DNA of 64,000 nucleotides. It comes from Actinomycetota bacterium. Its GTDB lineage: Bacteria; Actinomycetota; Acidimicrobiia; Acidimicrobiales; VFJN01. Under the pieces are notes generated by a model. It made no database searches. It worked only from the letters and a program-made list of their open reading frames with translations, and was not told the DNA's origin. Location: positions 29,328 through 93,327 of the forward strand of contig JBMOLI010000006.1 of NCBI GenBank assembly GCA_049325515.1, in the 5' to 3' direction. Below, in pieces: positions 17,417-38,849 of the stretch. A program made the position numbers and the translations under genes. Each line of letters begins with the position of its first letter. Positions within the stretch are counted from its first letter, which is position 1.

Positions 17417-17433
17417 TCTGACGGCTCGTCAGA
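17417..17433. promoter_or_regulatory. Palindromic operator candidate TCTGACGGCTCGTCAGA
   Basis: CTGAC-N5-GTCAG, 20 bp upstream of the SDR start; same motif at 25913, 35251 and 38831. Confidence 0.75.
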
Positions 17434-17439
17434 CACCAC

Positions 17440-17495
17440 CAACCAACGTCTGTGAACCCCCATGGCCGGCATGCGGACGTACGGGTTCACAGACG
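17440..17495. repeat. Family A palindromic element copy 2 (right arm shortened)
   Basis: CAACCAACGTCTGTGAAC-N27-GTTCACAGACG. Confidence 0.93.
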
Positions 17496-17507
17496 CCAGG
17501 AGCGACC

Positions 17508-18368
17508 GTGCGATACGGGATCACGATGTTCGCAACCGACCTCAGCTGCGATGTGGTCGAGCTGGCGCGCGAAGCCGAGGCGCGCGGCCTGGAGTCGCTT
17601 TGGCTGCCGGAGCACACGCACATACCGGTGAGCCGGCGCACCCCTCCGCCCACGGGGGACGCGGAGCTGGCCGAGGAGTACAGGCGCTGCCTCGACCCGC
17701 TCGTGGCGCTGGCCGCCGCGGCTTCGGTGACGACGAGCCTGCGACTCGGCACGGGCATCCTGCTGGCGGCGCAGCGTGACCCGATCGTCACCGCCAAGGC
17801 CGTCGCGACGCTCGATCACCTGAGCGGAGGGCGGGCCGCCCTCGGGGTGGGCTTCGGGTGGAACGAGGACGAGATCGCGCAGCACGGCGTTGCGATGGCC
17901 GACCGGCGTGACGTGGCGCGCGAGCACCTGCTCGCCATGCAGGCGCTGTGGGCCGAGGACGAAGCGTCGTTCGTCGGGCGCCACGTCCAGCTCGCCCCGT
18001 CCTGGTCCTGGCCGAAGCCCACCCAGCGCTCGGTGGACGGTCGCCCTGCTGTTCCCGTGCTGCACGGCGGGGCGGCCGGGCCCAAGCTCTTCTCCCACAT
18101 CGCCGAGTACGGCGACGGCTGGATCCCGATCGGCGGGGCCGGGCTGACTGATGCGATACCCAGGTTGCGTGAGGTCGTGGCGGAGGCGGGCCGCGACCCC
18201 TCGACCCTCGAGATCATCCCGTTCGGGTCGCTGCCCGACCCAGGCAAGCTCGACCACTTCGACCAGATCGGGGTGACCGAGTGCGTCTTCCGCCTGCCGA
18301 GCGCACCTCGCGACGTCGTGCTGCCGCTGCTGGACGAGCAGGCCGCGCTGGTGGCGTCGCGCCGCTGA
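17508..18368 (+). CDS. LLM-class, probably F420-dependent oxidoreductase
   Basis: WLPEHTHIP, DPLVALAAAA, ATLDHLSGGR, GFGWN, PKP. Confidence 0.9.
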   Translation: MRYGITMFATDLSCDVVELAREAEARGLESLWLPEHTHIPVSRRTPPPTGDAELAEEYRRCLDPLVALAAAASVTTSLRLGTGILLAAQRDPIVTAKAVATLDHLSGGRAALGVGFGWNEDEIAQHGVAMADRRDVAREHLLAMQALWAEDEASFVGRHVQLAPSWSWPKPTQRSVDGRPAVPVLHGGAAGPKLFSHIAEYGDGWIPIGGAGLTDAIPRLREVVAEAGRDPSTLEIIPFGSLPDPGKLDHFDQIGVTECVFRLPSAPRDVVLPLLDEQAALVASRR

Positions 18369-18381
18369 GGACGAGCGCAAC

Positions 18382-18444
18382 CAACCAACGTCTGTGAACC
18401 GCCACGGCCGCCATGCGGACGCAGGTGTTCACAGACGTTGTTTG
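18382..18444. repeat. Family A palindromic element copy 3
   Basis: CAACCAACGTCTGTGAAC-N27-GTTCACAGACGTTGTTTG between convergent genes. Confidence 0.95.
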
Positions 18445-18455
18445 GTGGGGCGCCT

Positions 18456-19427: not shown

Positions 19428-19464
19428 CCCGGGAGCATGGCACGCCTGCGCGAGGCTGCGTGTC

Positions 19465-20277: not shown

Positions 20278-20324
20278 ACCCCCATGGCCGCATACCGGCC
20301 AACCGAGTTCACAGACCTTGGTTG
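20262..20324. repeat. Family A palindromic element copy 4; overlaps the 3' ends of both convergent genes
   Basis: CAACCAACATCTGTGAAC-N27-GTTCACAGACCTTGGTTG. Confidence 0.93.
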
Positions 20325-21547: not shown

Positions 21548-21569
21548 CCTGCGGCTCAGTGCGCTGGCG

Positions 21570-21932
21570 CTAGTCGAAGACGACCACTGGGCGCACCTCG
21601 ACCTTGCCGTGCCAGGCACCCGGGATCTGCGCCGCCCACTTGATGGCTTCGTCGAGGTCGGCGCAATCGAGCAGGTAGTAGCCCCCGAGGACCTCCTTCG
21701 TCTCCGCGAAGGGCCCGTCGGTGGTGACGATCTCGCCACCCTTGCCGCCGAGCACGCTGACTGTCGTGGCGGTGTCGGTGGACTGGAGCGCGTTGCCTCC
21801 GACGATCACGCCCGCTGCGCCGGCTGCTTCTCCGAAGGCCATGTAGTCGGCCATGACGTCGCCCTGGAAGTCCTCCGGAGCGGCGGCCTGCTGGTCAGCG
21901 GGGCCGTAGATGAGAGCAAGGTACTGGGGCAT
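21570..21932 (-). CDS. YciI/DGPF family protein
   Basis: [16 protein letters not shown]...VEVRPV; RBS GGAGG. Confidence 0.92.
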
Positions 21933-22054: not shown

Positions 22055-23488
22055 CTAGCCGAACGCTTCGATCACCTTGCTGAATCGCTCGATCTGCTCA
22101 GTCGTGCCGTCCTCGTGGAGCGCGACGAAGACCTGGCGCACCCCTGCGTCGGCGAGGGAGCGGAACCGCCCGATCTGCTCATCGACCGTGCCGACGACGT
22201 CCGCGTAGCGATCGCCACCTGCGTCGATGACGGCGGCCTCCGAGAGGTGCGTGACGGTGATCTCGGCGGGATCACGGCCCTCTGCGTCACAGTGGTGCCG
22301 GAGGACATCTACCTTGTGCCGGACGACGTCGGGCTCGCCAAAGAGGTTGCACGCGTCGGCGTGCCGAGCCGCCAGTCGCAGCGTGCGGCGCTCACCCGAT
22401 CCACCGACGAGCAGCGGGACGCGCTCCTGGATCGGGCGGGGGTAGCAGATGGCCTCCGGGACGGTGACCGTGCGCCCTTCGAAGTGTGGCGAGCCCGGCC
22501 CCCAGAGCAGGGGCAGCAGCTCGAGGGCATCCTCGAGGAGCGCGTATCGACGGCTCAACGGCGGGAACTCCCAGCCGTACAGAGCGTGCTCGCGATCGTG
22601 CCAGGCGACTCCGAGCCCGCAGAAGGCGCGACCGCCTGAGAGCACGTCAAGGGTGGCGACCTGCTTCCCAAGCTGTGCGATGTTCCGATAGGTCACGCCA
22701 TTGACCAGCGCGCCGAGGCGCACACGGGTGGTGCACGCGGCGAGAAAGGCGAGCGCGGTCGTGCTCTCGGGGATGTCCTCCCACTCGGGACCGACGACCG
22801 GGATCTGCACGACGTGGTCCATGACCGAGATCGAGTCGAAGCCAGCCTCTTCGGCGGCACTTCCCACGCGCCGCAAGTTGTCCCGTAGCTGGGGTCCTCC
22901 GCCAGGCCAAGCGAATCGTCCAATGTGCAGCGCGAAGCTGAGGGGCACGGGATCCTCCTGCTGTAGGAGTGCTGCCGAGGGCGCCGACAGGAACCTGGGT
23001 GGGACGAGCGCGACCGGGGTGGCTTCGTCGACGTGGTGCACCCCGTCGAAGTCCTCCGTTGGGAGCGAGGGGATGGTTGCGGCGAGGGCACGTAGCTGCG
23101 AGGTGACAGTGGCCGACGGCACCGGCTGATCCCGAGCGCGGTTGCGCTCGCGTGTTGCACGCTCACCGACGTCGAGCACGACAGCGTGAACGGGCAGGCC
23201 GTGTTTGCGGGCGATCGCTGTCCATGTGCTCCGCAGCTTGGTGTCGAGACCGGAGGTGTCGAGAACGGTGGTGAGGCCCCTTCGAAGGCGAGCGTCGGCG
23301 ATGCGTGCAAGCAGGTCGAAGGCGTCCTTGGATGCGCGCTGGTCGTGCTCGTGCAGGCCGACGACGGCGCGCAGCGCATCCGATGACACGATCTGCCGAG
23401 CGTCGAAGCGGTCCGCTGCCCAAGTGCTCTTCCCGGCGCCAGCGGCGCCCACCAGCACCACGAGGCAAGGATCGGGCAGGCGGATCAT
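22055..23488 (-). CDS. Fusion of an AAA_33/polynucleotide-kinase-like P-loop domain and an LLM (F420-type) oxidoreductase
   Basis: VVLVGAAGAGKSTW, SSDALR; C-terminal MDHVVQIP, ATLDVLSGGR, GGSGERRTLR. Confidence 0.85.
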   Translation of the reverse strand: MIRLPDPCLVVLVGAAGAGKSTWAADRFDARQIVSSDALRAVVGLHEHDQRASKDAFDLLARIADARLRRGLTTVLDTSGLDTKLRSTWTAIARKHGLPVHAVVLDVGERATRERNRARDQPVPSATVTSQLRALAATIPSLPTEDFDGVHHVDEATPVALVPPRFLSAPSAALLQQEDPVPLSFALHIGRFAWPGGGPQLRDNLRRVGSAAEEAGFDSISVMDHVVQIPVVGPEWEDIPESTTALAFLAACTTRVRLGALVNGVTYRNIAQLGKQVATLDVLSGGRAFCGLGVAWHDREHALYGWEFPPLSRRYALLEDALELLPLLWGPGSPHFEGRTVTVPEAICYPRPIQERVPLLVGGSGERRTLRLAARHADACNLFGEPDVVRHKVDVLRHHCDAEGRDPAEITVTHLSEAAVIDAGGDRYADVVGTVDEQIGRFRSLADAGVRQVFVALHEDGTTEQIERFSKVIEAFG

Positions 23489-23552: not shown

Positions 23553-23999
23553 TCAGGCGCGGCCGGTGACGTCGACGACCCAGGAGAGGTCGGCGTCATC
23601 GAGGCGCTTGTGCCAGGCGGCGGGCGCCGCGCCCATCAGCGTCTGGAAGTCCCAGTAGTCCTTCCAGAGCACGATCACCCCGTCGACGATCCTCTGCACG
23701 GACACGAATGGCAGGGCGACGGTCTCGCCCGACTCCCAGGTCCACACCTCGGTGTGCTCCGTGACGACCACGCCGTCGGGCCCGTCGGCCACGACGCCGG
23801 GGATGTGCTCGTAGCCGGTTAGCCCTTCGAGGCCGAGTCGCAAGCGGGCTTCGATGCTGTCGGGACCGACGCCGGCAGAAGACGGTCCGGTGGGAACGTC
23901 GTAGTAGATCGACTCGGGCCCGAAGAACGATCGGATGCGGGGCCAGTCACGGTCGTAGAGCGCCGCCCAGAACGCCGCGGCAGTCTCGAGCGGCGTCAC
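23553..23999 (-). CDS. Limonene-1,2-epoxide hydrolase-like (NTF2/SnoaL fold) protein
   Basis: YYDVP...GPDSI...TEHTE...LPFVSV...WKDYWD. Confidence 0.8.
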   Translation of the reverse strand: MTPLETAAAFWAALYDRDWPRIRSFFGPESIYYDVPTGPSSAGVGPDSIEARLRLGLEGLTGYEHIPGVVADGPDGVVVTEHTEVWTWESGETVALPFVSVQRIVDGVIVLWKDYWDFQTLMGAAPAAWHKRLDDADLSWVVDVTGRA

Positions 24000-24043: not shown

Positions 24044-24128
24044 AGGGCTACTGATGCCCCCAACCTCCGGGCCCGCCGATGTTCGGGGCAGGGAGGGCCC
24101 GCGCAGGGCTACTGATGCCCCCAGCCTC
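24044..24128. repeat. 24-bp direct repeat pair AGGGCTACTGATGCCCCCA(A/G)CCTC with 37-bp spacer
   Basis: Copies at 24044-24067 and 24105-24128, one mismatch; second copy overlaps the amidohydrolase stop. Confidence 0.85.
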
Positions 24129-25851
24129 ATCGGGCACCTCGCAGGAGCACGCCGGGGCGGGCTCCGGTGTCCTCTCCGGACTCGAAGGTGATCTCCCCGG
24201 ACTTGATCGTCTGCAGGTAGCCGTCGGCCTGCTGGACGAGCCGACTGGCTCCGCCCGGAAGGTCGGCCACCAGAGCGGGGCGGCGCAGCTGCAGGCGCTC
24301 GAAGTCGATCACGTTGCAGTCGCCGACGTAGCCCGGAGCGAGCACGCCGCGGTCGCCCAGGCCGTAGAGCGTGGCGGTCGCCTGAGTCATCTTGTGAACT
24401 GCCTCCTCGACGGTCAGCCTGCCGTGATCGCGATCGCGGGCCCAGTGCGAGAGCAGGAACGTCGTGGTGGACGCGTCGCACGTCTGGCCGGCGTGTGCGC
24501 CACCGTCGCCCAGACCGAAGGCCGAGGTGGGATGCCGCAGCATCTCGCCCACGGCGTCGAGGTTGCCGTCGGTGTAGTTGAGGACCGGAGCGTTCAGCAG
24601 CTCGCGGCCGCCATCGATGAGGAAGAGCTCGAGCAGCAGCTCCCACACGTCGGCGCCCTGCGCGGCTGCCAACGAGGTCGCGCTGTCACCCGCACGTGGT
24701 TCGTACTGGGGCGGGTCGCCCAGCGGGAAGATCCGGTCGGGGTGCATGAACCCGCTCACGATCGGGTCGCCTTCGAGAGCGTGTGCATCGGCGATCAGGC
24801 GCGCCTTCAGATCTGGGTCGGCCTCGATGCGGGCCACCTGCTCGTGCCAGGGGAGCAGGCCGAGTCCGGCGGCTGTCCAGGCTGCGGTGAAGGCAAAGGG
24901 GTGGAAGGTCTGGAAGCCGAGGAGCAGCGACACCGTGCGGCCGTGCACCTGGGGACGGACGGGCGCGCCCTCGGCGGCTGCATGGCCGGCCATGTCAAGC
25001 ATCCGCTTCCAGGAGCCGGGGTCGGCGTTGTTCTGGTTGAGAGCGAAGGTGACGGGCCGCCCGATCGCCGCGGCGAGCCGGCGCATCCAGTCCATCTCCC
25101 GCTCCGGCGCAGCTAGGTCCTCGCCGAGCGCACCGGCCGGAGCCAGCTCGAACACACCGGTGCCGAGCTCACCCAGGACGCGACCGATGCCAAACAGCTC
25201 GTCCTCCGCCGCGAACGTCCCAGGGACCGGTTCGCCGTCGATGGCGCGGTGCGCCAGCGTGCGGCTCGTCGAGAAGCCGAGGGCGCCCGCCTCGATGCCT
25301 GCGCGCACGATGGCGGCCATCTGCTCGATGTCCTCCGGCGTGGCCGGCTCGTTGCAAGCGCCGCGGTCACCCATGACGTAGCCGCGCACGGCACCGTGAG
25401 GCACCTGCGTGCCGAGATCCATCACGTGCTTGCGCTGATCAAGAGCGTCGAGGAACTCGGGGAAGCTCTCCCAGCCCCAGCGGATGCCGGCCGACAGCGC
25501 CGCGCCGGGGATGTCCTCCACGCCTTCCATCAGGCCGATGAGCCACTCGTGCCGGTCGGGCGCGACGGGGGCGAAGCCGACCCCGCAGTTGCCCATCACC
25601 ACCGTGGTCACGCCGTGCCAGCACGACGGCGTCAGCTGCTCATCCCAGGTGGCCTGGCCGTCGTAGTGCGTGTGGATGTCGACGAAGCCAGGGGTGACGA
25701 GCGCACCGTCCGCGTCGATCTCGCGGGAGCCCTTGCCGTCCACGTGCCCCACCGCGGTGACGACGCCGTCGCTGATGGCGACGTCCGCCGTGACCGCGGG
25801 CGCACCCGTGCCGTCTACGACGGTTCCACCTCGGATCACCAGGTCGTGCAT
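24127..25851 (-). CDS. N-acyl-D-amino-acid deacylase family amidohydrolase
   Basis: [40 protein letters not shown]. Confidence 0.92.
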
Positions 25852-25912: not shown

Positions 25913-25931
25913 ACCTGACGGCCCGTCAGGT
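25913..25931. promoter_or_regulatory. Palindromic operator candidate ACCTGACGGCCCGTCAGGT
   Basis: CTGAC-N5-GTCAG in the divergent amidohydrolase/thioesterase intergenic region. Confidence 0.75.
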
Positions 25932-25936: not shown

Positions 25937-25999
25937 CCCTGTCGTTCTCGGGCGATCTCTCCGTTGCCCAGGCGGAATCTTCGCCCGAGAACGACAGGG
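25937..25999. repeat. Palindromic element family B copy 1
   Basis: CCCTGTCGTTCTCGGGCGA-N25-TCGCCCGAGAACGACAGGG; related copy at 53903. Confidence 0.85.
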
Positions 26000-26053
26000 A
26001 GCCCGCGTCGAATCGGTTGGCGGCAACCAAGGTCGGGGCGGCAGCCTGGGCCG

Positions 26054-26890
26054 ATGGGTGATCTGGGGATCGATACTGCGGTCGAGGACTGTGGCGAGGG
26101 GCGCTACCGCGCCACGCTGAGCCAGGACTGGGAGATATGGGGGCCGATGGGTGGCTACGTGGCAGCCGTCGCTCTGCGAGCGGCCGGCGCGGCCAGCGAG
26201 CATCCGCATCCGGTGGCGTTCTCGTGCCACTACTTCGCCGCTGCACGCTTCGAGCCCGTCGACATCAGCGTCGAGGCCCGCAAGACCGGCCGGTCGGCGA
26301 GCGCGCAACGGGTCGAGATCAGCCAGGACGGCCGGGCGATCCTGGACGCGATGGTCTGGAGCGCGGCCGACAACGAGGGTCTCGAGCACGACGAGACGAC
26401 CGCTCCCGAGGTGGCCGACCCGTCCGAGCTGCCGAGCATCGAGGAGCTGCTGCCGCCTGACGCAGAGTCGCCCTTCCCGTTCTGGCTCAACTTCGACGCC
26501 AAGCCGATCCACTTCGAGGTCGACTGGCCGCCCGAGGGCCCTCGCCCGGCCCGCTGGCAGGAGTGGCTCAAGTTCCTTCCCAGCGCCACCTTCGACGACC
26601 CCTGGCTCGACGCCGCTCGCTCGGTGATCCTCGTCGACCTGCCCAGCTGGCCCTCAGCACACCGCCCTCACGCCTGGCAGCAACCTCCCTACATGGCCCC
26701 CACGCTCGACCTCAACGTGGCCTTCCACCAGCCGACGGTCGATGAGGCGTGGCTGCTCTGCGACGGCGCTGCACCGCTGTCGACGCGCGGCCTGTTCGGC
26801 TGGACTGCACGCGTCTGGTCGCCCGGCGGCAAGCTCCACGCCTCCGGCGGCGGCCAGTGCCTCTACCGCAAGCTGCGCCCGCAGCAGTAG
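26054..26890 (+). CDS. TesB-like double hot-dog acyl-CoA thioesterase
   Basis: WEIWGPMGGYVAA, RKTGRS, APTLDLNVAFH, VWSPGGKLHA. Confidence 0.85.
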   Translation: MGDLGIDTAVEDCGEGRYRATLSQDWEIWGPMGGYVAAVALRAAGAASEHPHPVAFSCHYFAAARFEPVDISVEARKTGRSASAQRVEISQDGRAILDAMVWSAADNEGLEHDETTAPEVADPSELPSIEELLPPDAESPFPFWLNFDAKPIHFEVDWPPEGPRPARWQEWLKFLPSATFDDPWLDAARSVILVDLPSWPSAHRPHAWQQPPYMAPTLDLNVAFHQPTVDEAWLLCDGAAPLSTRGLFGWTARVWSPGGKLHASGGGQCLYRKLRPQQ

Positions 26891-30740: not shown

Positions 30741-31889
30741 CTAGAGGCGTTCGATGATGGTGACGTTGGCCTGGCCGCCGCCCTCGCACATGGTCTGAAG
30801 GCCGTAGCGGCCGCCGGTGCGCTCCAGCTCGTGCAGCAGGGTCGTCATGAGTCGTGCTCCCGTGGCGCCGAGCGGGTGGCCGAGGGCGATGGCGCCGCCG
30901 TTCACGTTCACCTTGGCGAGGTCGACGTCGAGCTCCTTCTGCCAAGCGAGCACAACGGAGGCGAACGCCTCGTTGATCTCCACCAGGTCGATGTCGTCCA
31001 TCGTCATGCCTGTCTTCTCGAAGGCGTAGCGCGTGGCCGGGATCGGAGCGGTGAGCATGTATATCGGGTCGTCGGCCCGCACGCTCATGTGGTGGATGCG
31101 TGCGCGCGGCGTGAGGCCGTGGTCGCGGAGCGCTTGCTCGCTGACGACGAGCAGCGCTGACGACGCGTCGGAGATCTGCGACGCCACGGCTGCGGTCACC
31201 CGGCCGCCCTCGACCAGGGTGGGCAGCGATCGGATCTTCTCCCAGTTCGGCTCGCGTGGGCCCTCGTCGACGGCAGCGTCGCCGAGAGGCACGATCTCGT
31301 GCTCGAAGCGCCCTTCGGCGCGCGCCCGCAGCGCGCGCTCGTGGCTCTCGACGGCGAACTCCTCCATCTGCTCGCGGCTGATGTCCCACTTGGTGGCGAT
31401 CATCTCGGCGCTGTTGAACTGGCTCACCTCGCCGGCGCCGTAGCGCTTCACCCAACCCTCGGAGCCGGTGAACGGGTCGGTGAAGCCGAGCGGCTCGGCC
31501 AGCGTCATGGCGGAGCTGATGGGGATCATCGACATCTGCTGCACACCGCCGGTCACCACGACGTCGTTGACGCCGGCCATCACGGCTTGAGCCGCGAAGT
31601 GGATGGCCTGCTGCGCCGAGCCGCACTGCCGGTCGACCGTGGTACCGGGCACGTGCTCAGGGAGGCCCGCCGCCAGCCAGCAGGTGCGGGCGATGTCGCC
31701 CGCCTGCCCGCCAACCGTGTCGACGCAGCCGAAGATCACGTCGTCGACGGCGGCCGGGTCGATGCCGGTGCGGTCGATGAGAGCACTGATCGAGTGGGCG
31801 CCCAGGTCGGCCGGGTGGACCTGGCTCAGACCTCCGCCGCGGCGCCCGACCGGCGTGCGCACTGCGTCGACGATGAATGCCTCAGGCAT
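30741..31889 (-). CDS. fadA6: Thiolase, FadA6-like (HIP catabolism)
   Basis: DRQCGSAQQA, IPISSAM, SQFNSAEMIA.KW, CEGGGQAN; resembles Rv3556c; cluster context. Confidence 0.85.
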   Translation of the reverse strand: MPEAFIVDAVRTPVGRRGGGLSQVHPADLGAHSISALIDRTGIDPAAVDDVIFGCVDTVGGQAGDIARTCWLAAGLPEHVPGTTVDRQCGSAQQAIHFAAQAVMAGVNDVVVTGGVQQMSMIPISSAMTLAEPLGFTDPFTGSEGWVKRYGAGEVSQFNSAEMIATKWDISREQMEEFAVESHERALRARAEGRFEHEIVPLGDAAVDEGPREPNWEKIRSLPTLVEGGRVTAAVASQISDASSALLVVSEQALRDHGLTPRARIHHMSVRADDPIYMLTAPIPATRYAFEKTGMTMDDIDLVEINEAFASVVLAWQKELDVDLAKVNVNGGAIALGHPLGATGARLMTTLLHELERTGGRYGLQTMCEGGGQANVTIIERL

Positions 31890-31898: not shown

Positions 31899-32978
31899 CT
31901 AGGTCGAGAGCGCTGACGCGACTCTGCGTGTGTGGTGGGCGGTGTCGCCCCACGAGCGGCTGAGCGCCCACGTGCGCTTCATGTAGAGGTGCAGGTCGGC
32001 CTCGACGGTGTAGCCGATGGCGCCGTGGCACTGCAGGGCCTTGCGCCCGGCCAGCTCGGCCGCGTCATTCGCCAGGGCCTTGGCCATCGAGACGTCGCGT
32101 GCTCTGGTCGAGGTGTCGTGCGCCACCGACCAGGCCGCCCTCCACACGGCCGGGCGCGCGAACTCGAGCGCCAGGGCGACGTCCGCGAGGTGGTGCTTGA
32201 CGGCCTGGAAAGAGCCGACGGGCACGCCGAACTGGTGGCGTTCCCGCACGTAGCCGACGGTGAGGTCGAGCATCGCCTGGCCCAGCCCGACAAGAATCGC
32301 GGCGGTGCCGAGGGCACCCCGGTCGATGGCGAGGTCGACGATGTGAGGGTCGTCGGCGACGATTTGCATGTCGGTCCCGGCGGTGGCCTCGTCGTCGCGG
32401 CCGGCCTTGTCGGCCGCGGCCCCGGCGGTGACCTTGTCGTCGGCCCCGTGAACTTGCGACATGTCGCCATCCGTCGCATGTCGCTGTGTCGCCGGCTCCG
32501 TCGAGTGGACACGCCCGGCGCGTCGGGCCCGGTCGACGGTGTCGACGGCGGTCAGCTCAGCATCAGATGGTGCGACGCAGACGATCGCGTCGCCGTGACG
32601 CAGCAGCAGAGTGTCGGCGTCGGCCGCGCACGGGACGTGTGGCCCGCCGAGGTCGGTGCTGACCATCCCCTTCCTGACGCCTATGAGCGGCGCAGCGACC
32701 ATCGCGGTCTCGACGATCGGATGCGGCAGCGCCACCCGTCCGCACTCCTCGAGGATCGGCACGAGGTAGGTCTCGTCGAGGCCCATGCCGCCATCAGATT
32801 CGGCCACCAGCAGGCCCAGCACGCCCATCGCGTCGAGGCTGTCCCACACGCCGCGGTCGAGCTCGCCAACTGGTGCGGCCCAGGCTGCTCTCACCGCGGC
32901 CGGCGGGCACTCCTTCGCGAGGAGCTCGCGCACGGCATCGCGGAAGGCGACCTGGTCGTCGGTGCGCGCGAACCTCAT
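31899..32978 (-). CDS. fadE32: Acyl-CoA dehydrogenase subunit, FadE32-like
   Basis: QFGVPVGSFQAVKH, ALQCHGAIGYTVEADL; ATGA-coupled to fadE31-like gene; internal insertion of about 45 aa. Confidence 0.75.
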   Translation of the reverse strand: MRFARTDDQVAFRDAVRELLAKECPPAAVRAAWAAPVGELDRGVWDSLDAMGVLGLLVAESDGGMGLDETYLVPILEECGRVALPHPIVETAMVAAPLIGVRKGMVSTDLGGPHVPCAADADTLLLRHGDAIVCVAPSDAELTAVDTVDRARRAGRVHSTEPATQRHATDGDMSQVHGADDKVTAGAAADKAGRDDEATAGTDMQIVADDPHIVDLAIDRGALGTAAILVGLGQAMLDLTVGYVRERHQFGVPVGSFQAVKHHLADVALALEFARPAVWRAAWSVAHDTSTRARDVSMAKALANDAAELAGRKALQCHGAIGYTVEADLHLYMKRTWALSRSWGDTAHHTRRVASALST

Positions 32979-34129
32979 CGCGGAAGCCCCAGGAGTCGCT
33001 CGGCTGCGATGTTGCGCTGGATCTCGTTGGTGCCGGCGTAGATCGGGCCGGAGAGCGCGAACTGCCAGCCCTTGCTCCATGGTCCGTCGAGCTCCGCCGC
33101 AGGTCCGAGCAGGTCGAGGGCGATCTGGTGCAGCTCGATGTCGAGCTCGGACCACCACAGCTTGGTGAGGCTCGCCTCGGCACCGAGCTTGGCGCCGCTC
33201 GCCAGCTTCGTGACGGTGGCCAGCGTCTGCAGCTGGTATGCCTCGGCTCGCATCCACGCTCGGGCAGCGCGCAGGCGCAGCGCCTCGTCGGCACGCTCGT
33301 CGCAGAGAGCGAGCAGGCGCTCGGCCGTTGCGAGGAAGCGCCCCGGCGAGCGCAGCGTGAGACCGCGCTCGGAGCCGGCCGTCGCCATGGCGACGGCCCA
33401 GCCACTGCCTGGCTCGCCGAGCACCACTCCGCCGTCGACGGCGTCGTCGGCCAGGAGCGCGTCGTCGAAGAAGACCTCGGCGAAGCCCTCGTCGCCGTCG
33501 AGCCGGCCAAACCCGCGCACGGTCACGCCCGGCGTGTCGAGCGGCACGAGGAGATAGGTGAGGCCCTTGTGGCGAACGCTGTCGGGGTCGGAGCGGAACA
33601 GGCCGAACAGGTGGGTGCAGAACGCGCCGCGAGTGGTCCAGGTCTTCTGGCCGTCGAGCACCCAGCCGCCGTCGACGCGGCGCGCCCGGCTCGTGACGCC
33701 GGCCAGATCGCTTCCGGCGTTGGGTTCCGACCAGCCCTGGCACCACAGGTCGTCGGCCGCCGCCATGCGACGCAGGATGCCGGTCTGCTGGGCCGGCGTG
33801 CCGAACTCGAAGACGCTCGGCGCCAGGAGGAAGATCCCGTTCTGTGTGACCCGCGGGGGACAACCTGCGCGGTAGTACTCCTCCTCGAACAGCAGCCACT
33901 CCCAGAGGGAGGCACCACGCCCGCCGTGCTCCTCAGGCCAGGACACGGCTGCCCAGCCGTCCGCGAAGAGCCGCCGCTCCCACAGCAGGTGCTGCGCGAA
34001 GCCGTCACGCGTGTCGCCAGAGGCGGGGTCGCCCCCGCATTCGTCGCGCCACTCGGACAGGTTCGCTTCGAGCCAGGCGCGTGCCTCCGCCCGGAAGGCC
34101 TCCTCGGCCGCCGACCAGGTCAGGTCCAC
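32975..34129 (-). CDS. fadE31: Acyl-CoA dehydrogenase, FadE31-like
   Basis: WSEPNAGSDLA, ERGLTLRSPGRFLA, GPIYAGTNEIQRN; resembles Rv3562. Confidence 0.85.
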   Translation of the reverse strand: MDLTWSAAEEAFRAEARAWLEANLSEWRDECGGDPASGDTRDGFAQHLLWERRLFADGWAAVSWPEEHGGRGASLWEWLLFEEEYYRAGCPPRVTQNGIFLLAPSVFEFGTPAQQTGILRRMAAADDLWCQGWSEPNAGSDLAGVTSRARRVDGGWVLDGQKTWTTRGAFCTHLFGLFRSDPDSVRHKGLTYLLVPLDTPGVTVRGFGRLDGDEGFAEVFFDDALLADDAVDGGVVLGEPGSGWAVAMATAGSERGLTLRSPGRFLATAERLLALCDERADEALRLRAARAWMRAEAYQLQTLATVTKLASGAKLGAEASLTKLWWSELDIELHQIALDLLGPAAELDGPWSKGWQFALSGPIYAGTNEIQRNIAAERLLGLPR

Positions 34130-34137
34130 GAGATCAC

Positions 34138-34192
34138 CAACCAGCGTCTGTGAACCCCTACGTCCGCATGGCGGCCGTGGCGGTTCACAGAC
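34138..34192. repeat. Family A palindromic element copy 5; contains the ipdC stop codon
   Basis: CAACCAGCGTCTGTGAAC-N27-GTTCACAGAC. Confidence 0.92.
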
Positions 34193-35258
34193 CGAGGCCC
34201 TTCAGAGCAGCAGCGGCTTCGCTCTCGATGCGAGAAAGGAGGTCGGCCACCGTCGGCAGGTCGTCGACCACTCCCGTCACCTGACCGGTGGGCAGGATCC
34301 CGACCTCGGGCTTGCCGTCGACCATCGTCGCCTTGATGAGCATCGGAGCGTTGGCGGCGAGGGCGACCTGGCTCCAAGTGAGATCTTGGTTGCGCTTCAT
34401 GGCGAGGCCCTCACGCAGCAGATCGGCGAGCGACGTGCCGGTCTCCCTGCGGAAGCGCAGCGCAGCGGCGGCCGCGCGGGGGAAGCGAAGGAGCTTCGGT
34501 GAGCGCTCGATGCGCTCGACGACATCAGTGCGGATGACGCGCTGAGGCGCGCCGTCGATCGCGGTGGTGACGACCGTGTCGAAGACGGTCGCCGCCGTGT
34601 AGCGATCCTTCACTCGGTCGGGCACCCGGCTCTCGGCCGTGAGGAGGAAGCGGGTGCCCATCGCGATGCCGTCGGCCCCATAGGCGAGAGCAGCGACGAG
34701 ACCTCGGCCGTCGTGGAAGCCGCCGGCGCCCAGCACCGGGATCGTGGCGCCCACGGCGTCCACGACCTGTGGCAGCAGCAGAGAGGTGGGCACCGAGCCG
34801 GTGTGGCCACCGCCCTCCGCTCCCTGCGCGATCACGGCGTCGACGCCCATGTCGAGCACCTTCTCGGCGTGCCTGCGCGCCCCCACGGTCGGCATCACCA
34901 CCACCCCAGCGTCGTGGCAGCGGGCCACCGCGGCTGCGGTGGGCGCCCCCGCGAAGGACACGAGTCGCACGCCTTCCGATACGACGAATGCCACGAGCTC
35001 GTCGAGGCCTGGTTGATCCGCACGGAAGTTGACGCCAAAGGGCGCATCGGTGCGTTCGCGCACCGACCGGACTGCGCCCCGCAGCTGCTCGGGTGTCATG
35101 GTCACAGCGGCGAGGATCCCGAAGCCGCCGGCAGCGCTCGTCGCCGCCGTCAGGCTGGCGCCCGACACCCATCCCATCCCGGTCTGCACGATGGGCAGCC
35201 GGCACCCCACCAGATCGCAGAACCTCGTCTGGAGCACGGGGTGGACAGAACCTGACAC
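34185..35258 (-). CDS. ipdC: Nitronate-monooxygenase-family enoyl-CoA reductase, IpdC-like
   Basis: PIVQTGMGWV, GAEGGGHTG, MGTRFLLT, TWSQV...ANAPML; resembles Rv3553. Confidence 0.85.
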   Translation of the reverse strand: MSGSVHPVLQTRFCDLVGCRLPIVQTGMGWVSGASLTAATSAAGGFGILAAVTMTPEQLRGAVRSVRERTDAPFGVNFRADQPGLDELVAFVVSEGVRLVSFAGAPTAAAVARCHDAGVVVMPTVGARRHAEKVLDMGVDAVIAQGAEGGGHTGSVPTSLLLPQVVDAVGATIPVLGAGGFHDGRGLVAALAYGADGIAMGTRFLLTAESRVPDRVKDRYTAATVFDTVVTTAIDGAPQRVIRTDVVERIERSPKLLRFPRAAAAALRFRRETGTSLADLLREGLAMKRNQDLTWSQVALAANAPMLIKATMVDGKPEVGILPTGQVTGVVDDLPTVADLLSRIESEAAAALKGLGL

Positions 35259-35267
35259 TCCGTCAGA
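35251..35267. promoter_or_regulatory. Operator candidate CCTGACACTCCGTCAGA overlapping the ipdC start
   Basis: CTGAC-N5-GTCAG. Confidence 0.7.
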
Positions 35268-35298
35268 TTAGTGACGGGCTTCTGAGACCGGCGAAAGC

Positions 35299-36315
35299 TC
35301 AGTCGAGGCTGCCGCAGGCGGCGGTTGCCGCGGCGGCACCGCTACCGGCGTTGTTGAGCACGCAGACCAGCCAGCTGCGCACGACGGGTATGTCGACTCT
35401 CTGGTAGCCGCCTAGGTAACGACAGTTGCTGGTGTACCCGTAGCTCGTGTCGCCGACGATGTAGCCGCCGTGGAAGGCGGGACCGCCCGAGTCGCCGAAG
35501 CAGGTGCCGCCTCCACCAAACGGGTCCCGTTCGTTGCCGTTCATCTGCAGGATCTGCGATGTGAGCTTCTGTGGCTTCTCGTCGGTGAGCTGCCGCCGGA
35601 TCGGGAAGCTCATCGGGGTCGGGGCCTGTGGACCGGTGTCTGCCTGGCGCACCTCGGTGCCGTACCCGACGGTGCGGATCAGCTCCTTCACGAGAGCCTT
35701 CTGGGGGATCCCGTCGAGGTACCCCTCCGGCGGGAGAGCTGCAGTCGCCACACCCGTGATCGCCTCGTCGAGGATGACCACGCCCGTGTCGTTCCAGTTC
35801 TTGATGTCCGTGAAGTCGCTGTAGTCAGGGTGGGTGAGTGCCGTCCCGGTGACCCACACGGGGCTGCCGTCGGCCGTCCCGTCGGCGAAGCCGGTGTTGT
35901 CATAGGGGTAGTGGGGCAGCGGGTTTCCGTCCGCATCGAGCTCGACGATCCACAGGCCGTCGTCGAAGCCCGAGCCCTCCTCGCCGAAGCCGAGGTCGTC
36001 CAGTGCTCGCGGGATCACCCGGCGGCCGGCGGCGGCATCGGGCGCGACCTCCGTGTCGAAGGAGACGGCGACCTTGCCGACGTCGCCGAAGGTGCAGTGC
36101 GCCGCTGTGACCACGACTCGGGGGTGGACGAGCGTGCCGGAGCACCGGAAGCGTCCGTCTGGCTGGTAGAAGACCACGATCCCGACGTTCGGGTGCGTCG
36201 GATCGACGGGGTCGTCGTCGGCGCCACCGGTGATGGCTCCGGCCACCGTTGTGGCAGCGATGAGAGCACCGGCCGCGACCACGATGGCTGCGGTGGTACG
36301 CCGAATGGTGCGCAT
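35299..36315 (-). CDS. Secreted trypsin-like (S1) serine protease
   Basis: Signal peptide then ITGG; CSGTLV..VVTAAHC, NDTGVVIL and TCFGDSGGP; triad intact. Confidence 0.9.
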   Translation of the reverse strand: MRTIRRTTAAIVVAAGALIAATTVAGAITGGADDDPVDPTHPNVGIVVFYQPDGRFRCSGTLVHPRVVVTAAHCTFGDVGKVAVSFDTEVAPDAAAGRRVIPRALDDLGFGEEGSGFDDGLWIVELDADGNPLPHYPYDNTGFADGTADGSPVWVTGTALTHPDYSDFTDIKNWNDTGVVILDEAITGVATAALPPEGYLDGIPQKALVKELIRTVGYGTEVRQADTGPQAPTPMSFPIRRQLTDEKPQKLTSQILQMNGNERDPFGGGGTCFGDSGGPAFHGGYIVGDTSYGYTSNCRYLGGYQRVDIPVVRSWLVCVLNNAGSGAAAATAACGSLD

Positions 36316-36392
36316 GTGACGATCCTCCGAGAGGTCGCGTGCGACGGCCCCGCCCTGGTTCCGTCCTCCGCGACGGTAGCGCGGACTTGGGA

Positions 36393-37169
36393 TCAGGGGT
36401 TCGGCACCTCGGAGTGACGCAGGCCGGTCGGGTCTATCACGGTGGCGATCAGCTCGATCTCCTCCGGGGTCGGCAGCCTCGACGTCGGAACGTCCTCCTC
36501 CACCACGAGCTCGAAGCCCGTTGCCGCGCGCACCTCGTCGACGGTCACACCCGGGTGCACCGAGCGCAGCCGCATCGAGTGGTCGGGGGTCTCGAAGTCG
36601 AGGACGCAGAGGTTGGTGACGACGCGGCGGATCTCGTGGAAGCGCGCAGCCCGCGGCCCTAGCGCGGCGGCACGGTCGTACCCGATGCCGCAGACCGTGT
36701 CGACCGCATCGCACACGACCGCAGGCGAGTGGTTGGGCACCCAGTACGAGGTGACGTCGTTGATGGTGTTCCCAGGGGCTCCCCTGTAGCCGAGCAGCTG
36801 CACCTTGGGCTGCTGGTACTGGCCGATGGCGGCGATGTTCTGGTTGCCGAACCGGTCGACCTGTGTGGCACCCATCATCACGTGGCGGCGCCCGTTCCAC
36901 ACCCAGTTGAACATCTGGCGGTACGGATTGAAGTGCTCGACGACGGCGCCGGAGGGCCATGCGAACGCCTCGTCGTTGGCGATGAGGCGTGCCTCGCCGT
37001 CGGTCATCGCCAGGTCGGGCTCGAACGTGGCGCGGGCCAGCCGGCCACCGATCATGGGGACGGTGCCGATCGGGTTGGCGAGGATCTCGCCGTCGCCGCG
37101 GAAGCACTCGGCCACGGCGACCACGCACACGTCAGCGCGGTCGACGAGGCCGTCGAGCTGTGCTGTCAC
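36393..37169 (-). CDS. ipdB: Ring-cleaving hydrolase beta subunit (CoA-transferase fold), IpdB
   Basis: TDGEA, GRRHVMMGATQVDRFGNQNI, RGAPGNTIN; GTGA-coupled to ipdA. Confidence 0.88.
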   Translation of the reverse strand: MTAQLDGLVDRADVCVVAVAECFRGDGEILANPIGTVPMIGGRLARATFEPDLAMTDGEARLIANDEAFAWPSGAVVEHFNPYRQMFNWVWNGRRHVMMGATQVDRFGNQNIAAIGQYQQPKVQLLGYRGAPGNTINDVTSYWVPNHSPAVVCDAVDTVCGIGYDRAAALGPRAARFHEIRRVVTNLCVLDFETPDHSMRLRSVHPGVTVDEVRAATGFELVVEEDVPTSRLPTPEEIELIATVIDPTGLRHSEVPNP

Positions 37170-38035
37170 CTGGCACCTCCGTCGGCGCGGAGCTTTGCCT
37201 GGTAGTCGGCCTCGCTCAGCTGGAGCCAGGCCTCCCGGAACTCGGCCCACGCCTCGGGTGACTTGGCGGACGCCGCGTACGCCTTCTGGAAGGCCTCATC
37301 GCGGTCGTAGTCGGGCACGCAGGACGTGAAGTGCGCGCCGTTGGGCGCCTCGATCACGCCGTCGACCAGCAGCCGGCTGATGAGCAGCGACTGCGGTGGC
37401 CCCTCCTTGGCGAGGTCCTCGGTGGCCACGACCTTCTCCGTGGAGAGGAAGCGCTTCGAGGCGGCGCCGAGGAACAGGTCGTCGAAGTACGGGTCAGGGC
37501 CGAGGTACTGACCGTTGCCGCGTGCGTCCGCGCGGTTCATGTGCACGAATGCTGCGTCCATCGTCAGCGCCGGCGCGGCTACGAGCTCCTCGCCATCGTC
37601 ATAGGGAGAGGTGATGGTGCGCAGCCGTGGGTTGTCACGAAGGAGGTCAGAACCGAGCCCCACGCGCGTTGGCAGGAAGGGGACGCGCCATGCGGCGGCC
37701 TGAAGCCCGAGGAGGAACATGCCCTCGTCGTAGGGCTCGTCCTCGATGCGACCACCCTGGCGGGCGGCGCGGAAGTGTGGCTCGAGTGGGATCGAGTCGA
37801 GCGACACGAAGGCGTAGACCAGGCGCTTCACCTTCCCCGCTGCGCAGAGCAGACCCACGTCAGGCCCGCCCCAGCTCACCACCGTGAGGTCGGTGAGATC
37901 CGACCGGAGGATGGCGCGCACGACGGACATCGGCTTGCGCCGTGAGCCCCATCCGCCGAATCCGATGGTCATGCCGGACGACAGCTCCGCCACGGCGTCG
38001 TCCTCACTGCAGCGCTTGTCGCGAGGTGCGGTCAT
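37166..38035 (-). CDS. ipdA: Ring-cleaving hydrolase alpha subunit, IpdA
   Basis: GGWGSRRKPM, FVSLDS, DEGM, GPDPYFDDLF. Confidence 0.9.
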   Translation of the reverse strand: MTAPRDKRCSEDDAVAELSSGMTIGFGGWGSRRKPMSVVRAILRSDLTDLTVVSWGGPDVGLLCAAGKVKRLVYAFVSLDSIPLEPHFRAARQGGRIEDEPYDEGMFLLGLQAAAWRVPFLPTRVGLGSDLLRDNPRLRTITSPYDDGEELVAAPALTMDAAFVHMNRADARGNGQYLGPDPYFDDLFLGAASKRFLSTEKVVATEDLAKEGPPQSLLISRLLVDGVIEAPNGAHFTSCVPDYDRDEAFQKAYAASAKSPEAWAEFREAWLQLSEADYQAKLRADGGAR

Positions 38036-38048
38036 CGTGAGAGGCGCG

Positions 38049-38810
38049 TCATCGTGTGGTGTCGGTGTCGCGCTTTGCGACGAACGCGTCGCGGTGCTCG
38101 TCGGCCACGCCTGACAGGTTGAGCTCGAAGGTGAAGCCCTGCTCGAACCGGTACGAGCGCTTGACGTCCCACAGGTCGATGCCGTTGAGGCTCTCCTTGG
38201 CGGCGCGGATCACGGTCGGTGACTTGGCGGCGATCTGGCCGGCCACCTCCATGGCCGCTGCACGCAGCTCCTGCAGCGGCACCACGCGGAGGACGGAGCC
38301 GAAGTGGTGCAGCTCCTGCGCTGTCGCGGTCGCCGACGTGTACACCATGGCGCGCATCTTGTGCTGGGGGACGAGTCGCGACAGGTGGGTGGCCGCGCCG
38401 AGCGCACCACGGTCGACCTCGGGCAAGCCGAACGTGGCGTCGTCGGCCGCGACGATGATGTCGGCGTTGCCGACCAGGCCGACGCCACCTCCCAAGCAGA
38501 AGCCGTTGACGGCCGCGATCACCGGCACCGGGCACTCGTAGACGGCAGCGAAGGCGGCGAAGCACCCGCGGTTGGCGCCGATCAGCGCCTCGAAGCCCTC
38601 GGTCGCCTGCATCTCCTTGATGTCGACGCCAGCGTTGAAGCCACGGCCCTCCGCGCGCAGGACGACGACGCGCACGTTCGAGTCGCTGCCCAGCGAGCTG
38701 AGCAGCTCCGCCAGGTCGAACCAGCCGGCAACCGTGAGCGCGTTGACCGGGGGGTTGTCCATGACGACCTCGGCGACGCCGTCGTCGTGGATGATGTGGC
38801 TGGTCCCCAT
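38049..38810 (-). CDS. echA20: Enoyl-CoA hydratase, EchA20-like
   Basis: FNAGVDIKEMQ, LPEVDRGALGAATHLSRLVP, SYRFEQGFTFELN. Confidence 0.9.
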   Translation of the reverse strand: MGTSHIIHDDGVAEVVMDNPPVNALTVAGWFDLAELLSSLGSDSNVRVVVLRAEGRGFNAGVDIKEMQATEGFEALIGANRGCFAAFAAVYECPVPVIAAVNGFCLGGGVGLVGNADIIVAADDATFGLPEVDRGALGAATHLSRLVPQHKMRAMVYTSATATAQELHHFGSVLRVVPLQELRAAAMEVAGQIAAKSPTVIRAAKESLNGIDLWDVKRSYRFEQGFTFELNLSGVADEHRDAFVAKRDTDTTR

Positions 38811-38830
38811 GGGCGACGCCTCGCGTTAGG

Positions 38831-38849
38831 TTCTGACGGACCGTCAGAA
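38831..38849. promoter_or_regulatory. Operator candidate TTCTGACGGACCGTCAGAA
   Basis: Perfect 9-1-9 palindrome about 20 bp upstream of echA20. Confidence 0.8.

Follow-up and report, generated by a model that had tools for sequence, protein, structure and literature searches.

The four CTGAC-N5-GTCAG palindromes in the window, by which we mean the whole 64-kb stretch of DNA analysed here, are likely operators of a dimeric repressor of the TetR_C_38 (PF19352) subfamily, which would be a non-orthologous functional replacement of KstR2.

A sequence-only reading of the window had reported four palindromes with a common spacing. All four stood up, i.e. the window contains four exact matches (Table 1), compared with an average of 0.13 over 100 dinucleotide-preserving shuffles, none of which contained four or more. 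When two mismatches were allowed, the signal vanished (31 matches found in the window versus 52 expected) and, therefore, the exact or near-exact palindrome is the only meaningful form of the motif. The gene context described in the same reading, i.e. an Rv3548c-like SDR gene, an amidohydrolase gene and a thioesterase gene, the start of ipdC, and echA20, was borne out by profile matches and coordinates. All four copies are intergenic and upstream of genes, and three of them are in divergent promoter regions. With gene calls from a GC3-based caller made for this analysis, for which start-codon distances are approximate, operator 1 ends 20 bp before the ATG of the Rv3548c-like SDR gene and operator 4 ends 22 bp before that of echA20; operator 3 shares bases with the called GTG start of ipdC and sits 14 bp upstream of an alternative GTG; and operator 2, which has the lowest PWM score of the four (24.2), has the amidohydrolase ATG 63 bp and the thioesterase ATG 124 bp downstream. 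The spacer of operator 1 (GGCTC/GAGCC) recurs among the motif matches of the genomes G024, G033 and G144.

Table 1. Candidate operators and neighbouring genes, in window coordinates
Feature	Position	Strand	Basis and context
Operator 1, TCTGACGGCTCGTCAGA	17417..17433		exact match; between divergent Rv3548c-like SDR and F420-type LLM oxidoreductase genes
Operator 2, ACCTGACGGCCCGTCAGGT	25913..25931		exact match; between Amidohydro_3 gene and acyl-CoA thioesterase gene
Operator 3, CCTGACACTCCGTCAGA	35251..35267		exact match; at ipdC start, downstream of inserted trypsin-like gene
Operator 4, TTCTGACGGACCGTCAGAA	38831..38849		exact match; between divergent echA20-ipdAB and Rv3549c-like SDR genes
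SDR, Rv3548c-like	16483..17397	-	NF005861 PRK07791, 477.5 bits (cut-off 373)
F420-dependent LLM-class oxidoreductase	17508..18368	+	TIGR03619, 234.5 bits (cut-off 166.9)
Amidohydro_3 (D-aminoacylase-like) metallohydrolase	24127..25851	-	PF07969, 3.4e-47
Acyl-CoA thioesterase II-like	26054..26890	+	PF13622 and PF20789; TIGR00189 49 bits, under cut-off
FadA6-like thiolase, last in ipdC operon	30741..31889	-	NF005865 PRK07801, 696 bits (cut-off 591)
Acyl-CoA dehydrogenase subunit (IpdE2/PimD-like)	31899..32978	-	NF050027 IpdE2 106.7 bits, under cut-off 450; TIGR03203 107 bits
Acyl-CoA dehydrogenase subunit (PimC-like), overlaps next gene	32975..34129	-	TIGR03204 158.6 bits, under cut-off
ipdC-like FabK/NMO-family reductase	34185..35258	-	PF03060 NMO 4.4e-73; TIGR03151 231.6 bits, under cut-off
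Trypsin-like serine protease between ipdB and ipdC	35299..36282	-	PF00089, 1.5e-13; no NCBIfam match
ipdB-like CoA-transferase beta subunit, overlaps ipdA	36393..37169	-	PF01144, 1.7e-6
ipdA-like CoA-transferase alpha subunit	37166..38035	-	PF01144, 9e-28; orthologues in 28/41 relatives
echA20-like enoyl-CoA hydratase	38049..38810	-	NF005925 PRK07938, 432.4 bits (cut-off 260)
SDR, Rv3549c-like	39021..39776	+	NF005893 PRK07856, 383.4 bits (cut-off 255)

In the 3.9-Mb source genome, exact CTGAC-N5-GTCAG was found 20 times, and 15 of the 20 matches are outside the gene calls (coverage, 85.5% of the genome). Control patterns were found 7 times with N4 spacing, 10 times with N6 spacing, and 5 and 2 times with swapped or reversed half-sites. 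The fuller motif is approximately ATCTGACGG-N-CCGTCAGAT, and strong sites are almost all intergenic, in many cases with a start codon 20-24 bp away. In total, the palindromes are real conserved sites that mark promoters, and we infer that they are bound by a protein.

A genome-wide search for enrichment of the motif at lipid and steroid genes, proposed as a check in the earlier reading, yielded ~16 promoters that belong to genes for the catabolism of acyl-CoA, lipids and steroids. The targets in the window are the Rv3548c-like SDR gene, echA20-ipdAB and ipdC-ACAD-ACAD-fadA6; beyond the window, the motif is found at around twelve further transcription units for acyl-CoA catabolism, and motif-headed genes include four or five genes for CoA ligases as well as genes for acyl-CoA dehydrogenases and family III CoA-transferases, an ADH-ChsH-Ltp operon and a P450 gene. 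HIP ring C/D genes of the kind that make up a KstR2 regulon are well represented, with sites before the SDR gene, echA20-ipdAB, the ipdC operon and an operon containing a fadD3-family gene. Thus, the proposal that the palindrome controls the HIP pathway held in that sites precede HIP genes, but the motif is not HIP-specific, since the promoters also include those of CoA ligases, Ltp/ChsH-type genes and the P450. The predicted targets form a coherent set that is wider than the HIP (steroid C/D-ring) genes. This set would take in the amidohydrolase and the thioesterase, as had been suggested, given that operator 2 lies between their genes and that a gene of the same Amidohydro_3 orthologue type in a genome of another family (G032, locus L021) likewise has a site in front.

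The site before echA20-ipdA was kept in 24 of 24 loci of relatives from six families (usable loci being those for which 900 bp or more were available upstream), in 18 cases as an exact match and in six with one half-site substitution. Among these loci, the half-sites were held constant and the spacer was variable. Moreover, a counterpart of operator 3 was detected 1.7-2.3 kb downstream of ipdA in eight relatives' loci. Altogether, both the position and the half-sites of the candidate operator motif are retained throughout an order of Acidimicrobiia and outside it.

The KstR2 operator, the consensus of which we take to be AnCAAGnnCTTGnT, was found neither in the window with up to one mismatch nor as an exact match in the 3.9-Mb genome, in agreement with the earlier failure to see this box between the genes. 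That observation needed a refinement, because the canonical KstR box is present in the genome, as is a KstR-like regulator. The KstR-like protein matches KstR in the PDB at 6.7e-26 and NF033703 with 150 bits (cut-off 280); it was rejected as the regulator of the palindromes on account of its own canonical box TAGAACGTGTTCTA, which has 27 pattern matches in the genome, 15 of them intergenic, and none within the window. At two promoters (C1:324532/324549 and C1:300841/300863), a KstR box and a palindrome are located side by side.

It had also been proposed that the HIP genes are controlled by a different regulator whose gene is not in the window. Our results point in the same direction: the genome has 36 TetR_N matches, all of them outside the window, and the candidate TetR gene is located on contig C18 (G000:C18:27063-27767). 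Its product, P0001 (235 aa), matches TetR_C_38 (PF19352) with 147.6 bits (cut-off 23.9; 2.9e-43) and TetR_N (PF00440) with 32.2 bits (cut-off 24). All 120 homologues listed for P0001 have PF19352, with 246 bits for the Streptomyces orthologue. The AF2 model of P0001 is all-helical (pLDDT 90.9), and its top structural matches in Foldseek are TetR repressors. The TetR gene is the last in an inferred operon that begins with a site at 23942 and continues with genes for an FA_hydroxylase, an isochorismatase-like protein and a CoA ligase of the FadD3 family (754.7 bits; cut-off 657), the gaps between the genes being 66, 8 and 35 bp. A further proposed check was for a transcription factor gene with the motif in its own promoter. 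There is no site directly before the TetR_C_38 gene in the source genome; the only one is 3.1 kb upstream, where the inferred operon begins and, thus, a site heads the regulator's own transcription unit, as in an autoregulated pair.

Among relatives, 12 of 30 TetR_C_38 loci have a site within 1.5 kb of the gene. Across loci of GTDB species, TGAC-N5-GTCA was present within 4 kb of the TetR_C_38 gene in 69 of 80, i.e. in 37 of 42 uncultured actinobacterial loci (mostly Acidimicrobiia) and in 32 of 38 Streptomyces loci. The region of the DNA-reading helix (...AGTSPATFYQYF...) is near-invariant among 14 orthologues from Acidimicrobiia to Streptomyces; this invariance matches that of the half-sites, and we count it as support for TetR_C_38 as the regulator. 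Moreover, a TetR_C_38 orthologue is present in 29 of 41 relatives, each of which has at least two motif matches, and of the 12 relatives without an orthologue, 10 have no motif, G031 has one match and G039 has two atypical ones, counts that come from related genomes and not from independent samples. In Streptomyces, the flank of one half-site differs (CGTCATAT) and the neighbouring fadD3 is absent beside the TetR_C_38 loci; because of these two observations, the ancestral role of TetR_C_38 was probably not specific to steroids.

The same data could be read differently, in that the motif may be a genuine operator of another DNA-binding protein, with TetR_C_38 merely a regulated member of the regulon that has a different target. 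We consider this unlikely. It would account for the data to the extent that any regulon gene would give equal co-occurrence and nearby sites, and the candidates were enumerated from the TetR family only. The same-genus relatives G011 and G021 lack the motif, the regulator and also ipdA and, therefore, the regulon genes, the motif and the regulator may have been lost together, and the co-occurrence is not fully specific. In G031 (92% complete), a variant site precedes echA20-ipdA and there is one exact match, and TetR_C_38 was not found. However, TetR_C_38 is the only DNA-binding protein that is repeatedly found beside sites across families, its linkage to the sites holds in Streptomyces despite different neighbouring genes, its helix-turn-helix is as invariant as the half-sites, and two other TetR genes near sites were excluded. 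We therefore favour the TetR_C_38 protein as the regulator over another DNA-binding protein.

It is very unlikely that the sites are recognised by a diverged KstR2 orthologue with drifted DNA specificity, even though the targets correspond to mycobacterial KstR2 regulon genes as given in Table 1 of PMC5380842. A TetR gene on contig C7 that adjoins one of the sites encodes a protein with 2ibd as its best PDB match (2.9e-11) and a match to KstR2 (4w1u) at 1.1e-6; we rejected this protein as the regulator because true orthologues are present in only ~7 of 41 genomes, and most motif-bearing genomes lack it. Among five TetR proteins compared, of the 36 in the genome, no KstR2 orthologue was found; the best match to KstR2 was 1.8e-8 and covered part of the length only. 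The top match in the genome to PF17932, which is presumably the C-terminal domain of KstR2, had only 29.8 bits. P0001 itself was ruled out as KstR2: the KstR2 chains (4w97 and 4w1u) are absent from its 33 PDB matches at E<=0.01, and its model is nearest to EthR, followed by FadR and FasR. Least probable of all is that the palindromes bind no protein and either match by chance or form terminator stems or small RNA hairpins, which we regard as barely credible for the four sites in the window, all upstream of genes and mostly in divergent promoter regions. Three of the 20 genome-wide matches (C10:97083, C11:62836 and C36:56148), which are located where convergent genes meet and have neither the flanking T/A nor the CG core, are probably of such a kind, and scaling the window shuffle rate to the genome gives ~8 of the 20 as the chance expectation. 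Yet, a 5-bp stem closing a 5-nt loop lacks the strength of a terminator, and conservation concerns the half-site sequence and not pairing, given that single substitutions (CTGAT, ATCAG) are uncompensated. Moreover, the extended form TCTGAC-N5-GTCAGA is present in nine copies in the source genome, and its reversed control had no match in any of the 41 genomes searched.

The TetR_C_38 candidate and KstR2 (Rv3557c of Mycobacterium and Rhodococcus) are both TetR-family proteins with palindromic operators in promoters (predicted ones for the candidate), and both are genetically linked to fadD3. Their common targets, with those of KstR2 as listed in Table 1 of PMC5380842, are genes for Rv3548c- and Rv3549c-like SDRs, echA20, ipdAB, ipdC, fadA6, the ACAD genes and fadD3; according to the same paper, the FadD3 product HIP-CoA serves as KstR2's effector. 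By contrast, the candidate has PF19352 as its C-terminal domain, its predicted operator is CTGAC-N5-GTCAG and not the KstR2 box, its gene lies outside the ipd cluster, and its predicted regulon is much wider. Like KstR (Rv3574), the candidate would be a TetR repressor that acts on steroid and lipid catabolism through numerous operators in one genome, predicted in its case; however, it is distinct from KstR both as a protein and in its motif.

The closest solved structure to the P0001 model is that of EthR (Rv3855) from Mycobacterium tuberculosis (Foldseek TM-score 0.86, target-normalised; rmsd 2.8 Å), which is also the best PDB sequence match (1.2e-7), with an identity of only 20% and no sign of orthology. 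EthR controls ethA, unlike the lipid-catabolic targets of the candidate, and the EthR operator is a long multi-dimer site. FadR of Bacillus and Thermus and FasR of M. tuberculosis have the same fold as P0001 and follow in the Foldseek ranking; the titles of their PDB entries refer to control of fatty-acid metabolism and to release or modulation by acyl-CoA, but they are 15-19% identical to P0001 and their operators differ. The Streptomyces orthologues are 53-57% identical to P0001 and have an AfsK-like PQQ-repeat Ser/Thr kinase gene two genes away. In Streptomyces coelicolor, SCO4421 is a developmentally regulated TetR gene near afsK (SCO4423), the deletion of which had no phenotype (PMC3878966); that paper reports no operator, regulon or ligand for it. 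By synteny, SCO4421 may be the S. coelicolor counterpart of the TetR_C_38 orthologues.

Altogether, we suggest a mechanism in which P0001 would bind the palindrome as a dimer through two 5-bp half-sites with centres 10 bp apart and, when on the operator, would block RNA polymerase. The repressor would be released by a CoA thioester that the co-transcribed ligase makes, either HIP-CoA or another acyl-CoA of similar kind, cyclic or branched, as suggested by the placement of the regulator gene in one operon with a FadD3-family ligase gene. The TetR_C_38 regulon would be a broad lipid-catabolic one that operates beside the canonical KstR regulon. Such a switch is of an ordinary kind; the pair of regulator and operator is new, and the TetR_C_38 subfamily is uncharacterised. 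More tentatively, and with some doubt, TetR_C_38 (SCO4421-like) proteins could be widespread actinobacterial sensors of cyclic or branched acyl-CoA with a conserved TGACGG-N-CCGTCA core from Acidimicrobiia to Streptomyces, which in Acidimicrobiales would gate HIP catabolism instead of KstR2 via the product of the FadD3-type ligase. If true, this would be a non-orthologous displacement of the regulator in a pathway that has so far been described with KstR2 only.

Four exact matches to CTGAC-N5-GTCAG were detected in the window, while 100 dinucleotide-preserving shuffles gave a mean of 0.13 and none of them gave four. When two mismatches were allowed, the pattern was not in excess in the window (31 observed, 52 expected). 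The sequence-only reading had written out four palindromes, and re-reading all four confirmed these sequences; moreover, all four sites are intergenic by GC3-based gene calls. In mycobacteria, ipdABC forms one unit, whereas here it is broken by an inserted gene for a trypsin-like serine protease; this arrangement fits with ipdC-ACAD-ACAD-fadA6 requiring its own promoter and operator.

Positions of sites, genes and other features (window, the stretch analysed; C, contigs and L, loci of the source genome)
Feature	Position	Strand	Context or evidence
Site 1	window 17417-17433 (exact match from 17418)		between Rv3548c-like SDR and F420-type LLM oxidoreductase genes (NCBIfam, Pfam)
Site 2	window 25913-25931 (exact match from 25915)		between Amidohydro_3 and acyl-CoA thioesterase genes (NCBIfam, Pfam)
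Site 3	window 35251-35267 (exact match from 35252)		at start of ipdC-like gene (NCBIfam, Pfam)
Site 4	window 38831-38849 (exact match from 38833)		between echA20-ipdA-ipdB and Rv3549c-like SDR gene (NCBIfam, Pfam)
GTCAG half-site	window 17400-17414		4 bp from operator 1
477-aa ORF	window 22055-23488	-	PNK-phosphatase kinase-like N-terminus (TIGR04075, residues 2-159) and F420-type LLM oxidoreductase domain
66-nt hairpin element	window 25937-26002		thioesterase gene leader, just past operator 2
Trypsin-like serine protease gene	window 35299-36282	-	between ipdB and ipdC (PF00089, 1.5e-13)
Candidate regulator gene	L006:18994-19770 (P0001 at C18:27063-27767)		TetR_C_38 (PF19352; 2.9e-43); 235-aa P0001 in public annotation
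C7 TetR gene	L005:4851-5516		two genes upstream of a site
KstR-like TetR gene	C1:321833-322420 (L003:11833-12420)		match to solved KstR, 6.7e-26
KstR boxes, examples	C1:320569, C1:324549, C18:28624, C18:36175, C18:42395, C18:47905, C6:194682
Operator/KstR box pairs	C1:324532/324549, C1:300841/300863		17-22 bp apart
KshA_C-containing gene	C1:330569-331162		~6 kb from site C1:324532
Fused 738-aa acyl-CoA dehydrogenase gene	C18:62265-64481 (L007:10265-12481)	-	two ACAD units
Exact motif match	C18:62223		3' end of fused ACAD gene

The further GTCAG next to operator 1 (CAGTCTGTCAG) may be a third half-site or a chance occurrence. The hairpin element past operator 2 is a perfect 19-bp inverted repeat, and partial copies of it are present on contigs C13, C5 (twice) and C4. 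The window also contains a 477-aa ORF in which two dissimilar domains are joined.

The source genome (3.9 Mb, 41 contigs, 69% G+C), in which the window corresponds to C6:29328-93327, contains 20 exact matches to CTGAC-N5-GTCAG. Genes were called by a simple GC3-based script (3325 genes, 85.5% of the genome), and start coordinates are therefore approximate; 15 of the 20 matches lie outside the gene calls, most of them 10-40 bp from a start codon. Control arrangements were less frequent genome-wide, i.e. seven matches with N4, ten with N6, five with swapped half-sites and two with reversed half-sites. The ten copies of CTGAC-N6-GTCAG may represent a second, related operator class in this genome. 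Three of the 20 matches are located between convergent genes without the extended consensus and were therefore excluded as likely hairpins or chance occurrences. A weight matrix built from 16 seed sites gave the consensus (g/a)ATCTGACGG-N-CCGTCAGAT(c/t). The distance from the end of the palindrome to the predicted start codon downstream is 20-24 bp at seven promoters, a spacing that would place the palindrome on the core promoter of transcripts with a short leader or none; the sequences were inspected for -10 and -35 elements by eye only, with none firmly assigned.

Ten loci around the sites of the source genome were annotated. The genes directly behind the sites encode CoA ligases (a PRK07798-type, a FadD4-like, a 517-aa and a FadD3-family ligase), acyl-CoA dehydrogenases including a fused 738-aa form, family III CoA-transferases, a P450, an Amidohydro_2 protein, a CurA-like reductase, an aminotransferase and an ABC-transporter binding protein, as well as an ADH-ChsH-Ltp operon. 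We conclude that the motif marks a regulon for the catabolism of lipid and steroid acyl-CoA compounds, of which the steroid C/D-ring catabolic (HIP) genes in the window are one part. The gene for the fused acyl-CoA dehydrogenase is divergent from a family III CoA-transferase gene, and the operator that separates the two is among the strongest; a second exact match is located at the 3' end of the fused gene.

The extended palindrome TCTGAC-N5-GTCAGA was present in 31 of 41 related genomes, which are non-independent samples, while its reversed control was present in none of the 41. Within the genus, 22 of the 24 other genomes carry the extended palindrome, and so do eight of 16 other families in the order. 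The site neighbours in three genomes from other families again encode acyl-CoA dehydrogenases, CoA ligases and CoA-transferases, among them an IpdA-like CoA-transferase, as well as Amidohydro_2, Amidohydro_3 and LLM oxidoreductase proteins. The counts of motif, TetR_C_38, ipdA and C7 TetR among the 41 relatives include the unpublished genome G004, and the unpublished genome G121 entered one other count; no claim depends on either genome alone.

Relatives were also searched with IpdA, and the loci were scanned for the relaxed pattern TGA[CT]-N5-[AG]TCA. All 24 loci in which the upstream sequence extends to 900 bp or more (a further three were too short) have a site 770-1053 bp upstream of ipdA, before echA20, or, in the relative G032, 75 bp upstream. 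Of these sites, 18 are exact and six have one half-site substitution. The half-sites are kept and the five spacer bases vary freely, which is how a protein-binding site, rather than an RNA stem, should behave. Moreover, eight of the ipdA loci have a second site at the position equivalent to site 3 of the window.

The passages of PMC5380842 drawn on here describe KstR2 as the regulator of steroid ring C/D catabolism in mycolic-acid actinobacteria; its regulon there contains Rv3548c, Rv3549c, echA20, ipdAB, ipdC, fadA6, kstR2, ipdF, fadE30-33 and fadD3, and HIP-CoA is the product of FadD3 as well as the effector of KstR2. The sequence-only reading had noted that the KstR2 box is missing near the HIP genes, and this held true, with no box in the window at up to one mismatch and no exact box in the genome. 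Similarly, no KstR2 orthologue was found among the five of 36 TetR proteins that were compared with the PDB. A search for an orthologue by way of PF17932, which we take to be the KstR2 domain, gave weak matches only (best 29.8 bits), the two best being DarR/FadR-like in the PDB.

Candidate regulators were enumerated in the TetR family only. None of the 36 TetR_N matches of the genome lies in the window, and only three TetR genes, i.e. a KstR-like gene, the C7 gene and a TetR_C_38 gene, are located near sites in the source genome. The KstR-like protein, which scored 150 bits on NF033703 and thus under the cut-off of 280, was rejected as regulator of the palindromes because it has a canonical KstR box of its own in the genome: of the 27 matches to T..AAC..GTT..A, 15 are intergenic, and most read TAGAACGTGTTCTA. 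At two promoters, such a box adjoins a CTGAC-N5-GTCAG operator, which suggests dual control. One of these operators lies near a KshA_C-containing gene, making ring-opening steroid catabolism plausible in this organism. The C7 TetR was rejected because orthologues are present in only ~7 of 41 relatives (57-80% identity, plus one at 44%) and the motif is present in 31; it can therefore not be the conserved partner.

Four lines of evidence from sequence comparison point to the TetR_C_38 gene as encoding the probable regulator of the palindromes. The gene is the last in a same-strand string that starts from the site at C18:23942 and continues with genes for an FA_hydroxylase, an isochorismatase-like protein and the FadD3-family CoA ligase; this ligase was the sole one among five tested to pass NF005801 (754.7 bits, cut-off 657). 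The 39 site-flanking proteins scanned in the relatives G027, G032 and G033 included no TetR by Pfam, and the TetR_C_38 gene in relatives was then located by protein search. Of the 41 genomes, 29 have an orthologue, and every one of these carries two or more motif matches. Among the 12 genomes without an orthologue, ten have no motif, G031 has one match and G039 has two with atypical spacers; G037, which has only a 31%-identical TetR_C_38 relative, has no motif. In G011 and G021, ipdA, the motif and the regulator are missing alike, and because ipdA is also lost the joint loss is not specific to the regulator. A site is located within 1.5 kb of the TetR_C_38 gene in 12 of 30 loci from relatives, often directly upstream, and the order site-ligase-TetR in G027 matches that in the source genome, where no site was detected directly upstream of the gene even with two mismatches.

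The HTH segment (...D[IV]A..AGTSPATFYQYF...) is nearly invariant in an alignment of 14 orthologues. The best PDB match of P0001 is EthR (1.2e-7), and none of its 33 PDB matches is a KstR2 chain. The structure nearest to an AlphaFold model from the alignment (pLDDT 90.9, pTM 0.81) is that of EthR, at 20% identity and a target-normalised TM of 0.86, with FadR and FasR next.

Using the same alignment as query, a scan of GTDB with one genome per species gave 80 loci. TGAC-N5-GTCA is present within 4 kb of the TetR_C_38 gene in 69 of these, with chance matches estimated at ~0.07 per locus. The 69 comprise 37 of the 42 loci from uncultured actinobacteria, most of which are Acidimicrobiia, and 32 of the 38 from Streptomyces. 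Upstream of the TetR_C_38 gene and on the same strand, 21 of the 80 loci have a FadD3-like gene (identity of 60% or more) and 32 an isochorismatase-like gene. The Streptomyces site reads approximately ATCTGACGGnCCGTCATAT and lies between a divergent acyl-CoA dehydrogenase/F420H2-quinone-reductase pair and an Ltp-like thiolase gene. In one Streptomyces genome with five exact matches, three lie together no more than 30 kb from the TetR_C_38 gene, where they adjoin SDR, LLM, ChsH2-type and flavin-monooxygenase genes.

In the two Streptomyces loci L166 and L161, the TetR_C_38 gene lies beside genes for a glyoxalase-like protein and an AfsK-like PQQ-repeat Ser/Thr kinase, and the F420H2-dependent quinone reductase gene is co-oriented with that of the regulated acyl-CoA dehydrogenase. 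By synteny with the AfsK-like kinase only, the S. coelicolor member is probably SCO4421, described in the passages of PMC3878966 drawn on here as a developmentally regulated TetR gene without a deletion phenotype and of function not known.

The sites, their conservation, the co-occurrence of the regulator and the operon linkage are direct observations, and by analogy with KstR2, FadR and FasR we infer that TetR_C_38 binds the sites, in which direction it regulates and what kind of ligand it responds to. A TetR_C_38 dimer would bind the palindrome on core promoters and repress transcription, and the CoA thioester produced by the co-transcribed FadD3-type ligase would release the dimer, leading to induction of the HIP genes as well as of the operon of the regulator itself.

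A TetR repressor with palindromic operators before lipid and steroid catabolic genes is a well known kind of system. What is new, as predicted from the genomes compared, is the pairing of the CTGAC-N5-GTCAG operator with the PF19352 subfamily, the apparent reach of this pair from Acidimicrobiia to Streptomyces, and its putative takeover of the KstR2 gene set. As represented by the window, uncultured Acidimicrobiia have the gene set of the KstR2 regulon with a probable regulator of another TetR subfamily and with another operator, beside a canonical KstR system. Searches of the literature found none that names PF19352 or TetR_C_38, none with the CTGAC-N5-GTCAG motif in several written forms (supplementary files aside) and, among the papers listed for CTGACGG, no operator description; in the literature listed on KstR2/HIP-CoA and Acidimicrobiia/ipdAB, no title or start of an abstract described the motif.

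A large family (5268 PF19352 homologues at E<=1e-10), previously without a DNA site or regulon, gains predicted ones. With the operator known, the regulon would become readable from metagenome sequence, which would help in telling which Acidimicrobiia in the environment are degraders of sterol-like compounds. Finally, once its ligand has been found, the putative repressor-operator pair would offer a simple basis for biosensors.
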